Of a DNA stretch of 64,000 nucleotides, positions 55,726 to 60,670 are shown piece by piece. A program made the translations under genes and the position numbers. Source of the DNA: Microthyrium microscopicum (lineage: Eukaryota); the NCBI GenBank assembly GCA_010405405.1, contig MU004232.1:825481-889480 (forward strand), written 5' to 3'. How positions within the stretch are numbered: position 1 is the first letter of the stretch; every line of letters begins with the position of its first letter. The notes below the pieces were generated by a model. The model did no database searches, was not told the DNA's origin, and saw only the letters and a list, made by a program, of their open reading frames with translations.

Positions 55726-55920
55726 GACAAAATAACTGGCCTTCTCCCATCAGCGTCGATGGCGCCCACGAACGTTGTTAATTCAAACGTGTTATATTTC
55801 CCAACGCATTCGATAAATAATCGAAGTCTGAACGCGCTCTATGGCAAATAAAGCACTCGATAGCAGATCGTATTGTATGGGAGCCATCGCACTCGTTGGG
55901 AGCGCGCCGTTTATTTTGTC
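55726..55920. mobile_element. MITE-like element, copy B (195 bp core, inverted relative to copy A)
   Basis: Begins GACAAAATAACTGGC and ends GCCGTTTATTTTGTC; homologous over its full length to 36836-37032. Confidence 0.75.
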
Positions 55921-56041
55921 GACCCCTTCCAAGCCACCCGCAGATCTTTCCTGTCACAAGTCCATTCGACATCTGACCTGATATTGCATTGCATTTGATA
56001 TACCCATCATCACCATCATAATCGCTGGAAGCACTAACTCC

Positions 56042-56455
56042 ATGTCCACCTCTGTGACAACTCAAACCATCGTCAATTCCTACCGAACACTCTACCGCGC
56101 CAGCCTCCGCGCCGTCCAATACTCCACTCCAAACCGCTACCTTCTCCGCGACCGTCTTCGACGCGCCTTTCGCGAATCTCCGCGCGCCGACTATGAACCC
56201 GACCGCATCGCCAACACACTCAGTTTCCTCAATGCTGCAGCCTCTGACACGGGCTTGGAGCACCGTGTAGTGAAATCCCTCTGTCATGTCTGGCACGGCG
56301 AACATCGACAGTGGAAGGCGCGCAGCCGAACATGGACAATGATACATTCACAAAAGGCAAAACGCCCACAGGTCAAGTGGGAGACGCAGGCATATGACAA
56401 CTTTTACTGGACTGTTCGCATGCTGAATGAGAGTATGGGGCTTTGCATTAAATGA
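56042..56455 (+). CDS. Small LYR-like, probably mitochondrial protein (DUF1763-like)
   Basis: YRTLYRASLRAVQYSTPNRY..RDRLRRAFR, IANTLSFL..AA...GLEHRVVKSL, C-terminal MLNESMGLCIK. Confidence 0.75.
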   Translation: MSTSVTTQTIVNSYRTLYRASLRAVQYSTPNRYLLRDRLRRAFRESPRADYEPDRIANTLSFLNAAASDTGLEHRVVKSLCHVWHGEHRQWKARSRTWTMIHSQKAKRPQVKWETQAYDNFYWTVRMLNESMGLCIK

Positions 56456-56491
56456 ATCCCCACCGCAATCTGGATAATCTACATATAGCCA

Positions 56492-57403
56492 TCACATAAA
56501 GTCCTCCTCAAAGTCCGATCCACGGTCCTGGTTGCTAGACTGCGCCTTATTGTCCTCCGAAAAGAGGTCATCGTACGCATGGTCACGCTGGTACGCCTTC
56601 TCCCTGCGCTCACGGGCTACGCGCTGCTCTTCTTTGACACGTTGTTGGCGCGTTGATTGCTCTCGGCGGCGGAGTTCTTGGAGACGGTCTTCGCGTTCTT
56701 GACGGAGGTCAGGGAACCTTTCGACTTTGGTTTTGTTGAGGCGGTTGACGATGGGGTTTTCGCGGGCGATGACGTGGATGCGTTTTACCTGGTGGACACA
56801 AAGTCAGGCAGGGAGACTCAGTGCGGATGATGAACAGGGTAGACTACCTTCTTGTTATCCTTGAAGCTGACTTGTCCTACGGCCATACTTCCATCTTTCT
56901 TGAGATTGGACCATGGCGTGTAGATGACGGTGACATTGTCTTTCTTGTTGCCTGGATACTGTCAGATCAGGTTGAGTCTACCAACTAAGAGCTTTACCCT
57001 CGATTGAGTTGGCCTTGGTCAGTTGAGCGCAATCCGTCAGAAGATCGGCGGGAATATTCTCCCATGAATCTCCTTCTCTCAACCGGACATATATATGGGC
57101 ACTGGATAGATTGTCGACATGGAACTGTACAATATATATTGGTCATTTTGGAACCCGAAATGGACGCGAAGGTCATACCCTTTTCGCAGTTAGACTTTCA
57201 TTATTTCATTTGATGTTAAGAACATAAGAATTACCAAACGTCTTCCTCCCAACCAAACTTGATTAATTCCTCATCTGCGTAATAGTCTCAATATTATGTC
57301 GTCCTTTCATGTCATGCGGGGCTGTCATACTTTCAACTTTGTCCTTGCCAACATAGATGAAGGCGGACGGTTCAACGACATTACTCGTGAAGTAAAGCAC
57401 CAT
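56492..57403 (-). CDS. CCDC25: CCDC25/Jlp2-like NFACT-R domain protein; multi-exon, including a predicted 1-nt exon at 57179
   Basis: Not in the ORF track as one ORF. Splicing gives [50 protein letters not shown]...[42 protein letters not shown]...EEDFM. Confidence 0.92.
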
Positions 57404-58399
57404 GGCTGATAGGCGATTTGTGGAACTGGTCTGTCGTGGAAAAAGTCTGAGAGTTTGGAGATGGTGCTGGCGAATGAAGCTCCCCACATTGAGGATCCAA
57501 AAGGCTTTAGCGCTCGGGCCACTTTGACCTCCAACTCGACCTCCTTCCTCTTTTGAATGCTGTGTTTACCGCTTTGTACGTTCTGCGACAGGGTAGAAAC
57601 TCAGCTTACAGAAGACCAAGAAGAGCTTCCGGCTTTTGAATGAATATCGAGAAACGTGGAGGGCTGTCTCGAGAGATCATGAACCCGGGGTTCCCAACCA
57701 CATGAACCAGTAGACAGCATGATCGACCGACACCCCAACAGTTTACTATCATGCTTCAGAGGTGGGCTCATCGGGATAGTTGTGTCGAAGCTCTTTGATG
57801 AGGTTCTGCATGATAATAATTAGTCTCATGTCAGGAGCATAGAGTGCAATTGTATACCGCTAGAGCTTCCGGATTCACACCTCGTTGAATAAGCGAAACA
57901 CAGGCAGCAAGCTGTTTACGAGACAGATGAGTGTTCTATTTGTATGTTAGATAGCGAAACAATCGGCCTAGTTCCTCGGCTTACCAGAATGGATGAGATA
58001 TCGGCAATGATATCGAGTGCTTCGCGCGCAGCAAGCTGCTTTTTCTGATCTTGCTCTTGGCCTGGCATCGTGGGTCTATTTCCGTTGGTGGCGAAGTCCC
58101 TATATTGTGATGATAAGTCTCCTCAGAAGACCGTGAACAATTCGTTGGAAAAGATTTTTGGTCAAGTTGTTGTAGTTGAAGCGATGGTCGAGCTTCATAC
58201 AGCTCTTTCAGATATCTCCAAATTGACAAGGATCACGTGGAGACGCGTCAAACATCAATCGACCTACGATTTCTTTGCTGCATCTCCTTTAAGATATCCT
58301 GGAATTTACAATAAGCCCAAAATTTGGCATTCGAAGAGCAGAACGGATGCGCGTCAGTAGAAATGTACGCGACCTGACAGTCAAATCGCTGTCGCCAAA

Positions 58400-60670
58400 A
58401 TGCTTCACGAAATCTTGCTATCCCTTTCGGGACACCCCTCACCATTATTTCAGGATGGAGTCACCAAAAACGGAGAGTTTCCAATGCTATCGCCATCGGA
58501 GAAAGAGCTATTGAAGAAAATCGGTCGATTATCAATACTACACCAAAACATCCGGAAAACCATAGCTCTCATCGCAAGCAGCCACAGCTCACCCATATGC
58601 AAAGCTGTCGCAACGACCATAGAAAGCTACCACCTATCCAACTTTCAAAAGAAGATACTAGAAGTTGAAGAAGCCATACTCCAGCGAGATTCTGCGGTAG
58701 TCGGAGCCTACAACATCGTCCCCCTCGCGACAATTGTCACCGAATTCGATGGCTGGCATCGGCTTATGGAATGGCTATGGGAGGCCACAATCTTCATAGC
58801 GCCTAGTAAACGAGAACCTCATGGCTGTAATGGGCCAGATCTTATCAATAGGTTACGGAACAGCGCGCAGACTGGATTTCCTGATATTGAGGATGCGGCT
58901 ATTCAGCTGTCGAAAGTTGCTGAAGCTGCTTGGCTGAGACAGCTTGCGAAATGGGTACTTTATGGACAATTACCCGAATCTGGCTCGTCAGATTTTCTTA
59001 TACAGCCTGGTATCACAGAAAATCGTTCTCCAACACAGTATGAGATAATTCAGCAGCGAAGACCTGTCTTCGTATCAAATGAAACGGCAACTTCAATATT
59101 GTTCGTTGGTCAGGCCTTGCATCAGATCAGCTCTCGATCACAAGAAAACTCCACCGCAACGCGAGTAAAGCCTCGTATTGAACTACTTCCAGCTCATCAA
59201 AAGATGTTATCGTCTCTGAGATTACCAATATCTTCGCCTCACCTCTCAGAATCAGTGCGTGAAATACGACTATCGCTTTCTCGGAACATATTACAAAAGT
59301 TATTACCTGTTAGCGAAGTCATCCGCCTGTTGACGTTACTTCGGGAGTTCTTTCTACTCGGTCAAGGTGAATTTGCTTTGAGTATCATCCGCGAAGCCGA
59401 CGATCGGGTGGCCGCCAGGACACGACAATACGAGCAGAAGCCAGGCAAGGATGGTCTTCAAGGTTTAGTCATGAAAGACGCCGAATTAACTGCCATCTTG
59501 ACCAAGACCTGGACTCACCTGTCCAGCCTGATAGGAAATGATGACGATGATGCCCATGACCTGCTTGAAATGGGTAGAGATCTTATAACTCTGTCCATCG
59601 GACGCAATACAAACAATTCAAGGAAAGACAAGTCAACCATTGATGACCCATCCAGTAAAAGCCATTTCAGCAACTTCATACTTCCCATCCCAACATCACT
59701 CGATCTCAGCATAACACAACCCTTTGATCTGTTCATCTCCCAGTCAGAAATCCAAACATACTCCGCACTCAACGCTTACCTCCTCGCTATCCGACGCGGT
59801 CACATGCACATCGCTGACCTGTGGAAGCAATCATCCATCCGTCGAGATCACCCAACACCACTAGGTCCACCCAAAAGCTGTACGACTGCCGGCCAACGAA
59901 TCCTCCAGAAACGTCGTGAACGCTCCCATGCCCGCTATGTCGAGATGCGCAAGGTCTGGGCCACCTGCCATGCAGTCCTCTTCCTCCTGAACGAGCTAGG
60001 CGAGTACTTTGCTGGACAAGTTCTACCTGCCATGTGGGATGACTTGCTGGCATACATCACCAATGAACCAACATCCGCTGCAACGTCTCACAGCACCCTT
60101 TCATCGCGTCCACCCACAGCCAACTCATCACAACCACCCAATATTCTACCTCCCAGTACCCCATCTCAACAACCAGCCCATGATCCTGCAACCCTGTCAA
60201 CCGCCCACCGCATCTTTCTCACTGCCCTCTCCCACGCCCTCCTATACACGGACACTCCCTTCCTCTCGGCCCTGACAACGCTCCTGCACGCCATCGATGA
60301 TATGATCGCACAGATCATGCGCCTTCAGACCGTTCAGCGAAATATGGATCTAGAAGAGGACGAAGGTGTCTTTGATGCCATGGAGAACTATGTGGCTGAG
60401 GCCGCAGAGTGTGCGGTCGAGTTAGATCGTGCGCGAAAGAGGGTCGATTCTGGAGCAAGGGCAGTCGTGGGAAGACTGAAGGAGTTAAGTGCTGGCGACG
60501 GATTGAATGGCGTTGTATCTGGTATCGGTGGTATAGGCTTAGGTAATATGGGTGTAGGCAAGATTGATGGCGATGGTTATAGACCCGTGGTTGGGGGTAA
60601 GATTGAGTGGTTGATTATGAAGTTGGAGTTTGGACGGGATCAGGAGGACGGGGAGTGGGAGGAGGATTGA
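58400..60670 (+). CDS. GCP4: Gamma-tubulin complex component, GCP4-like (Spc97/Spc98 family), intronless
   Basis: MLHEILLSLSGHPSPLF start, WLRQLAKWVLYGQLP, SILFVG, REFFLLGQGEFA, PFDLFIS...YS.LNAYLL. Confidence 0.85.
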   Translation: MLHEILLSLSGHPSPLFQDGVTKNGEFPMLSPSEKELLKKIGRLSILHQNIRKTIALIASSHSSPICKAVATTIESYHLSNFQKKILEVEEAILQRDSAVVGAYNIVPLATIVTEFDGWHRLMEWLWEATIFIAPSKREPHGCNGPDLINRLRNSAQTGFPDIEDAAIQLSKVAEAAWLRQLAKWVLYGQLPESGSSDFLIQPGITENRSPTQYEIIQQRRPVFVSNETATSILFVGQALHQISSRSQENSTATRVKPRIELLPAHQKMLSSLRLPISSPHLSESVREIRLSLSRNILQKLLPVSEVIRLLTLLREFFLLGQGEFALSIIREADDRVAARTRQYEQKPGKDGLQGLVMKDAELTAILTKTWTHLSSLIGNDDDDAHDLLEMGRDLITLSIGRNTNNSRKDKSTIDDPSSKSHFSNFILPIPTSLDLSITQPFDLFISQSEIQTYSALNAYLLAIRRGHMHIADLWKQSSIRRDHPTPLGPPKSCTTAGQRILQKRRERSHARYVEMRKVWATCHAVLFLLNELGEYFAGQVLPAMWDDLLAYITNEPTSAATSHSTLSSRPPTANSSQPPNILPPSTPSQQPAHDPATLSTAHRIFLTALSHALLYTDTPFLSALTTLLHAIDDMIAQIMRLQTVQRNMDLEEDEGVFDAMENYVAEAAECAVELDRARKRVDSGARAVVGRLKELSAGDGLNGVVSGIGGIGLGNMGVGKIDGDGYRPVVGGKIEWLIMKLEFGRDQEDGEWEED

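Follow-up and report, generated by a model that had tools for sequence, protein, structure and literature searches.

One-base exons are known and very rare, with few documented. In Arabidopsis, the single-nucleotide exon of APC11 was proven by mutagenesis of the base itself (A>T, A>G, A>TT and deletion; Guo & Liu 2015, PMC4674806). In Fusarium, CYP621A carries a one-nucleotide exon within the pentamer AGGGT, reported from 20 orthologous genes of Fusarium and Nectria and described by its authors as the first fungal case (Nelson & Syed 2026, PMC12940212). A long-read annotation of Coprinopsis cinerea gives, as a count, thirteen 1-nucleotide exons in 13 genes (PMC12230235), and one-base exons are also reported from mitochondria, in placozoan cox1 and in Ophiostoma mitogenomes. 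The CCDC25/Jlp2-type gene on the minus strand of the 64,000-nucleotide stretch analysed here (the window) adds one case to this list. In our reading, to which we give a probability of about 90%, the codon for Trp-38 is divided into TG and G by two separate introns of the ordinary U2 GT-AG type, intron A (57234..57180) and intron B (57178..57125), which leave between them a single exonic base, G57179. The splice signals, the junction in the messenger RNA (mRNA) and the conservation of the layout at related loci are directly observed. A literature search returned no published 1-nucleotide exon or stwintron in CCDC25, DUF814 or NFACT genes, with the proviso that the supplements of the Coprinopsis and Fusarium reports could name more genes.

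As far as the published passages on Fusarium CYP621A go, the two exons have much in common. Both lie in nuclear genes of filamentous ascomycetes and within the same AG|G|GT pentamer, and in both the lone G completes a codon in a conserved motif. In each gene the intervening sequence as a whole has about double the length of a usual intron, automatic models are wrong at the site, and the support comes from read or contig junctions together with an alignment of orthologues. They differ in that CYP621A encodes a P450 and its exon supplies the middle base of a Gly codon, whereas the gene studied here encodes an NFACT-R release factor and its exon supplies the third base of a Trp codon. In addition, the Fusarium exon is described from Fusarium and Nectria only, whereas the loci that share the present layout lie close to four classes of Pezizomycotina. 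The Arabidopsis exon, in the portions of that report compared here, is likewise a constitutive 1-nucleotide exon between two GT-AG introns, essential for the reading frame and mis-annotated in GenBank. In contrast to our locus, it belongs to a plant gene, consists of A rather than G, and is flanked by long introns (the previously assigned intron measured 422 nucleotides); it was also proven by mutagenesis, whereas the exon here is known from the sequence, a contig junction and orthologues. The Coprinopsis exons resemble ours in being fungal, nuclear and drawn from transcript evidence, and their omission often gives premature stops; they come from a basidiomycete, and the passages that report them give a count only, with no gene names or conservation.

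The first-pass annotation of this locus had compared the arrangement with stwintrons, and as an analogy for consecutive splicing the comparison holds. In both cases two U2 introns are packed together in a fungal transcript and would be taken out consecutively, and a central G plays a dual part in acceptor and donor contexts. The locus is not itself a stwintron, however. A stwintron has an internal intron that disrupts a splice signal (donor, branch site or acceptor) of the external one; the external intron forms only once the internal one has been excised, and nothing exonic lies between them. Here neither intron interrupts the signals of the other, the primary transcript contains both in complete form, and a single exonic base is left (AG|G|GT rather than an overlapping AGT). 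We rejected a stwintron on the primary sequence, in which the donors GTAATT and GTATGA and the acceptors AAAAG and TACAG are intact, and from which excision of either intron creates no new signal. Recursive splicing at the zero-length exons, or ratchet points, of Drosophila and vertebrates also proceeds stepwise, through a 3' splice site followed by an adjacent or regenerated 5' site. Those sites occur in very long introns and contribute no base to the mRNA, whereas in the present gene a base is retained between introns of about 55 nucleotides. A recursive site was rejected on the sequence AGGGT with one G retained in the mRNA, and a U12 or AT-AC intron on the GT..AG ends.

The arrangement around the Trp codon can be read from the window letter by letter. 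Exon 2 (57235..57274, 40 nucleotides) encodes (N), 12 amino acids and the TG of the Trp codon, and its 3' end at 57235 reads ...GACGTTTG / GGAAGACGTTTG, that is, GAC GTT TG. Exon 4 begins at 57124 with TTCCATGTCGAC (TTC CAT GTC GAC). Between them, AAAAG|G|GTATGA at 57184-57173 holds a lone G flanked directly by AG and GT. Intron A, 55 nucleotides long, has the donor GTAATT, the acceptor GAAAAG and the motif GTCTAAC, whose CTAAC at 57193-57189 places the candidate branch A at 57190, 10 nucleotides before the acceptor G. Intron B, 54 nucleotides long, has the donor GTATGA, the acceptor TGTACAG and a looser branch-site candidate, ATGAC at 57146-57142, 18 nucleotides before the acceptor. Both are sized like the other introns of the gene (56, 46 and 59 nucleotides), and intron B shares its GTATGA donor hexamer with intron 1. 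Within the 110-nucleotide stretch AGGGT occurs exactly once, and an AGGGT that leaves at least 40 nucleotides on each side is seen with p = 0.0135 in 20,000 shuffles of the stretch interior; the pattern goes beyond chance.

With the G included, the spliced coding sequence of 642 nucleotides encodes 213 amino acids, the modal length of the family, and the spliced translation restores the motif DVWFHVD. In an alignment of 26 homologues (A1), W38, F39, H40, V41 and D42 are invariant (26/26) and V37 is nearly so. If G57179 is omitted, the frame shifts and meets TGA after 17 codons; if intron B is retained the product ends ...DVWV* (TGG GTA TGA), and if intron A is retained it ends ...DVW* (TGG TAA). 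The first-pass annotation had given both introns on the minus strand with the coordinates, lengths and lone G reported above, had assigned this G to the Trp codon of DVWFHVD, and had foreseen both the early TGA on skipping it and the TGG GTA TGA on retention of intron B; the sequence, the restored frame and the translations bear out each of these claims.

Transcript evidence came from one source, the public run X1, which is available as contigs under the label 'RNA? (a guess)' and which we placed on positions 56300-57600. Its record 5, a contig of 980 nucleotides with no other letters, contains the joints 56950>56997, 57123>57233 and 57274>57331. The second of these spans the double intron: it skips 109 nucleotides, with 2 letters that fit on either side (both = 2), and on the minus strand it reads ...GACGTTTGG|TTCCAT..., so that GTTTGG|TTCC is kept. 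Omission of the G would have given a skip of 110 nucleotides and use of GTTTGG as a donor a skip of 115. The junction is the one that the first-pass annotation had predicted for the complementary DNA (cDNA). Among the X1 joints at this site, in one run and its contigs, there was no other junction, including one from the GTTTGG donor, which would delete Val-Trp.

We next compared the site between the Trp and Phe codons in related DNA, fetched from metagenome contigs by means of alignment A1 (584 stretches matched, 515 confirmed, 80 loci kept). The full layout, TG|GT...AG|G|GT...AG|TTY, is present in 12 of the 80 loci, which amount to 8 distinct sequences: L013 (equal to L014), L023, L024, L025, L031, L051 (equal to L052), L058 (equal to L062 and close to L066) and L064. 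A thirteenth locus with the layout, L036, is partial; its contig starts inside intron A and reads CAG|G|GTATGA...AG|TTC. The AG-G-GT proposed as a check in orthologues is thus found in them. At 62 of the 80 loci the site has no intron, and L073 lacks the region; the proportions of these states carry no weight, because one of the two search patterns, WFHVD[NK]LS, favours an uninterrupted W-F and 7 of the 62 intron-free loci may be cDNA-like or intronless. L054 (about 404-1269) and L055 (1501-2366) have a single phase-0 intron of 59 nucleotides at the place of intron B, TGG|GTATGG...CACAG|TTC, and their sequences are consistent with the loss of intron A alone. Intron A alone was found in none of the 80 loci.

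Two further loci, L063 (near 1640-1720) and L077 (near 416-496), read an uninterrupted ATC TGG TTC and have an apparent intron a few codons upstream (...GAG|GT...AG|GAC ATC TGG), at a different position within the same motif-coding stretch.

In each of the 8 distinct sequences AGGGT occurs exactly once and divides the intervening sequence into halves of 52-163 nucleotides (per-sequence shuffle p 0.005-0.053). Counting the window, all 9 lineages have AG|G|GT at the same position of the codon, together with the terminal GT and AG, and intron A has GT, a YTRAY motif and AG in 8 of the 9. Outside these signals the introns are no more alike than expected by chance: with duplicates and the partial L036 excluded, identity between lineages was 0.57 for intron A and 0.48 for intron B, against 0.53 and 0.45 for shuffled partners (36 pairs each). 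Judged by these alignments, the splice signals alone are kept, the rest of both introns having diverged to the shuffled background.

The gene that carries the exon is, by sequence, the CCDC25/Jlp2 orthologue of a dothideomycete, and the DNA matches Microthyrium microscopicum. It encodes an NFACT-R domain, and its six exons run, on the minus strand, between the start codon ATG (57403-57401) and the stop codon TGA (56494-56492). The product of exon 4 (56998-57124) is by itself enough for a match to Pfam PF05670 (NFACT-R_1), at 38.1 bits over a cut-off of 29.8 (E = 2.4e-9). A protein search with the same exon gave 942 proteins at E<=0.001 among 954 candidates. Among the 120 matches listed, most of those with names are DUF814, NFACT RNA-binding domain or CCDC25 proteins, mostly of about 210 amino acids; the best named matches measure 200-215 amino acids, in line with full-length CCDC25/DUF814 proteins. 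The best match of all, P0001, has 212 amino acids, is assigned by source name to the dothideomycete Microthyrium microscopicum, and is 100% identical over the queried exon. The C-terminal part of the translation is rich in K, E and R and ends ...DFEEDFM.

According to passages of a 2026 preprint, yeast Jlp2 acts on stalled ribosomal complexes, where it frees peptides from peptidyl-tRNA, and its His44, whose counterpart in human CCDC25 is His41, is essential for this release (bioRxiv 10.1101/2025.09.04.673968). H40 of the WFH motif, two codons past the split Trp, most likely corresponds, by numbering only, to yeast H44 and human H41.

Many of the related loci have FHAD instead of FHVD after the Trp (L002, L015, L025, L031, L033-L036, L042, L043, L047, L049, L050, L053, L058, L064 and others), so that the Val of FHVD is not invariant across the wider family, although V41 is invariant in the 26 sequences of A1.

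Other ways of producing the same mRNA, or a different one, have to be set against two introns around a lone G. The 109 nucleotides could be a single intron with non-canonical ends (GTAATT...GTACA|G or G|TAATT...TACAG), removed in one reaction, with the internal AGGGT playing no role. The X1 junction, ambiguous by 2 letters, fits this equally well, and no intermediate is seen in the contigs. According to the junction table, however, such an intron would need either CA or TA as acceptor or one of TA, TT and TG as donor, and it would have about twice the length of the other introns of the gene (46-59 nucleotides). The orthologues speak against it as well: all 9 lineages start with GT, end with AG and contain one AGGGT that divides the sequence into intron-sized halves, while the rest lies at background, and if AGGGT had no role there would be no reason for it to persist. 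We regard a single intron as quite improbable. An error in the assembly would restore canonical ends, if the genome really had one G more at the exon 4 boundary (...TACAG|GTTCC) and a single intron of about 110 nucleotides, and the mRNA would look identical. Against this, the same 'missing' G and an internal AG|G|GT are seen in 12 independently assembled metagenome loci (8 distinct), and each half bears its own splice signals; the chance of such an error is slight in the extreme.

The public annotation offers a different product. P0001 reads ...GWEED|FHVDN, without Val-Trp, which is what is expected if splicing starts at GAC|GTTTGG; the frame is kept and the ends are GT..AG, and the protein without Val-Trp could in principle be the main product or a substantial isoform. 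The first-pass annotation had named this donor, which it called weak, as the one alternative that would delete the conserved residues, and the public model corresponds to it. The X1 contig contradicts it, the sole joint at the site skipping 109 nucleotides and keeping GTTTGG, and the residues that would be lost are those conserved in A1 (W38 in all 26 homologues, V37 in nearly all). Furthermore, P0001 departs from X1 a second time, at intron 5, where it has an extra Val (KDNKKVVKRIHV vs KDNKKVKRIHV), as if the donor lay 3 nucleotides downstream; the X1 joint there skips 59 nucleotides and backs the form without the extra Val. Because contigs drop rare variants, a rare isoform from the GTTTGG donor may exist; that the annotation is right for a main or substantial product we consider very improbable.

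Several observations nevertheless weigh against two introns and a one-base exon. A search for a strict YTRAY motif found none in intron B of the window, and among the 9 lineages only 4 have one in intron B. The identity of X1 as RNA is itself drawn from its four joints, three of them skips that have GT..AG ends at the permitted cuts and one spanning the double intron. Positions 57136-57223 are spanned in the X1 contigs by joining only, with no partly spliced intermediate or lariat. In the mRNA the retained G is indistinguishable from G57234 or G57125, and therefore the mRNA alone also fits a single 109-nucleotide intron (GT..CA, TA..AG or AA..GT). The bias of one search pattern toward an uninterrupted W-F, noted above, belongs here too. 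Since the transcript evidence consists of contigs, none covering both introns, the case for two introns rests on the splice signals and the comparison of orthologues. It is the conservation of these signals, joined to the mRNA junction, that supports the single-nucleotide exon proposed in the first-pass annotation.

If the Trp codon is indeed assembled across two introns, two standard splicing reactions would be enough to make the mature mRNA, and their order would be immaterial to the product. G57179 would act as the first base of the 3' exon for intron A (AAAAG|G) and as the last base of the 5' exon for intron B (G|GTATGA). Both of these positions, +1 after an acceptor and -1 before a donor, favour G (frequencies in the passages of PMC12940212). 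The last two bases of intron A, its acceptor AG, coincide with positions -3 and -2 of the intron B donor, and 12 nucleotides upstream of that donor lies the branch site of intron A. U1 on the donor of intron B could thus hardly sit together with the branch-site and acceptor factors on intron A, and exon definition would be impossible. If the two introns cannot be bound at the same time, as general spliceosome footprints suggest, they would have to be removed one after the other; we infer that the reactions are separate and consecutive, in one order or the other. Because retention of either intron leads to an immediate stop, incompletely spliced products should be non-functional.

The same site is troublesome in public gene models of other fungi. 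Among the best 120 of the 942 homologues, D[VI]W-FH is contiguous in 72, VW is missing in 14, extra residues follow DV[W/C] in 8, and an unrelated or truncated part stands directly before FH[VA]D in 26. By source name, the models without VW come from Microthyrium, Lophium, three Phyllosticta, Aspergillus versicolor, A. crustosus, Thozetella, Trichophyton, Corynascus, Dichotomopilus, two Penicillium and Bathelium; Tuber indicum, Coccidioides, Emmonsia and Thermothielavioides are among the sources of models whose upstream part is unrelated or truncated. The Penicillium taxi model contains an insertion, VGFLPA, that is similar to the peptide obtained by translating the beginning of intron B in the Penicillium-like locus L051 (GTC GGT TTC CTT GCC...). 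These faults fit a widespread 1-nucleotide exon that gene finders cannot place, if the models are taken at face value, and public 213-amino-acid models of some relatives may already imply the one-base exon. Phyllosticta citriasiana is represented by two differing models, one of 211 amino acids without VW and one of 213 with it.

How widely the layout is shared was judged from the proteins encoded at the loci. The nearest named protein of L051 is from Penicillium cinerascens (83%), those of L024, L023 and L036 are from Podospora/Corynascus (63-77%), and that of L058 and L066 is from Tuber indicum (74-77%); for L013, L025, L031 and L064 the nearest named relatives are distant (48-61%). We then built a quick tree from 175 columns, trimmed from FH.D onward; it included 45 proteins chosen by name among the 120, together with 23 of the 80 loci. 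By the Shimodaira–Hasegawa-like approximate likelihood ratio test (SH-aLRT), L051 groups with Penicillium (80-92), L023, L024 and L036 fall in the sordariomycete group (87), and L058 and L064 group with Tuber indicum (95). From these placements, the layout probably occurs in four classes: Dothideomycetes (the window), Eurotiomycetes (Penicillium), Sordariomycetes (Sordariales) and the early-branching Pezizomycetes (Tuber). Two points count against this breadth. The deep order of the tree differs from the species tree, with the Tuber group inside Dothideomycetes, and because a protein of about 175-210 amino acids and a quick tree are its basis, the breadth at class level is probable rather than proven.

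The probable occurrence in four classes, Pezizomycetes among them, suggests that the layout arose at or close to the base of Pezizomycotina and that many lineages then lost both introns together. With some reserve, we favour descent of the one-base exon from the common ancestor of Pezizomycotina, AG|G|GT having been preserved base by base in four classes or more while drift randomized the sequence of both introns. An alternative origin, which may also apply here, is offered in the passages of Nelson & Syed on the Fusarium exon, in which a base was lost at an intron border and the loss was rescued by a cryptic AGGGT within a longer intron (PMC12940212). Since the layout recurs in some lineages and is lost in others, the origin, stability and loss of a one-base exon become open to comparative study.

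The value of the case thus lies in its apparent age and breadth and in the annotation errors, close beside a presumed catalytic residue, for which it seems to be responsible. It is found in a conserved housekeeping gene, and recurrence near four fungal classes is not shown in the passages that describe the published nuclear cases. If ancestral to Pezizomycotina, it would far exceed every other known one-nucleotide exon in age and in the breadth of its conservation. It would also offer a test, repeated in nature, of how an intron-defining spliceosome deals with an exon that it cannot bind; the same base would serve in turn as 3' exon and as 5' exon, in either order, in a compact natural substrate for ordered splicing under intron definition. 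Finally, it would be a hidden cause of systematic error, two codons before the presumed catalytic His, in dozens of fungal CCDC25 models. The model errors adjoin the histidine of WFH, and gene finders that are unable to place 1-nucleotide exons will repeat them.

The remainder of the gene also lies on the minus strand. The coding part of exon 1 (57331..57403; 24 amino acids and 1 nucleotide) is defined by the sequence, the X1 joint 57274>57331 and the spliced translation. Intron 1 (57275..57330; 56 nucleotides, GTATGA..ACGCAG) corresponds to that joint, which skips 56 nucleotides with CT..AC ends. Exon 4 (56998..57124), supported by Pfam and by X1 joints, holds the NFACT-R_1 core, including H40 of WFH, and ends ANSIE(G). 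Intron 4 (56952..56997; 46 nucleotides, GTAAAG..ATCCAG) is skipped by the X1 joint 56950>56997 (46 nucleotides, cut +1). Exon 5 (56848..56951), which encodes (G) and 34 amino acids, is supported by the sequence, X1 and the translation. Intron 5 (56789..56847; 59 nucleotides, GTAGTC..CACCAG) is skipped by the joint 56785>56845 (59 nucleotides, cut +3). Exon 6 runs to the stop (56492..56788, TGA at 56494-56492), and X1 record 1 covers 56300-56790. Beside the spliced joint at intron 5, X1 record 2 (56761-56873, 113 nucleotides) crosses the intron unspliced, so that either some of the RNA keeps this intron or run X1 contains some DNA.

Immediately past the 3' end of the CCDC25 gene are two overlapping open reading frames, 56042-56455 on the plus strand (137 amino acids) and 55778-56347 on the minus strand (189 amino acids), and neither has a Pfam match. 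Given the extent of X1 record 1, at least part of this 3' region is transcribed, as 3' untranslated region. On the other side, upstream of and divergent from the CCDC25 gene, an uninterrupted open reading frame of 756 amino acids (58400-60670, plus strand) is a gamma-tubulin complex component, matching both the N- and C-terminal domains of that family (E = 1e-27 and 1e-16). X1 record 5 extends past 57600 toward it.

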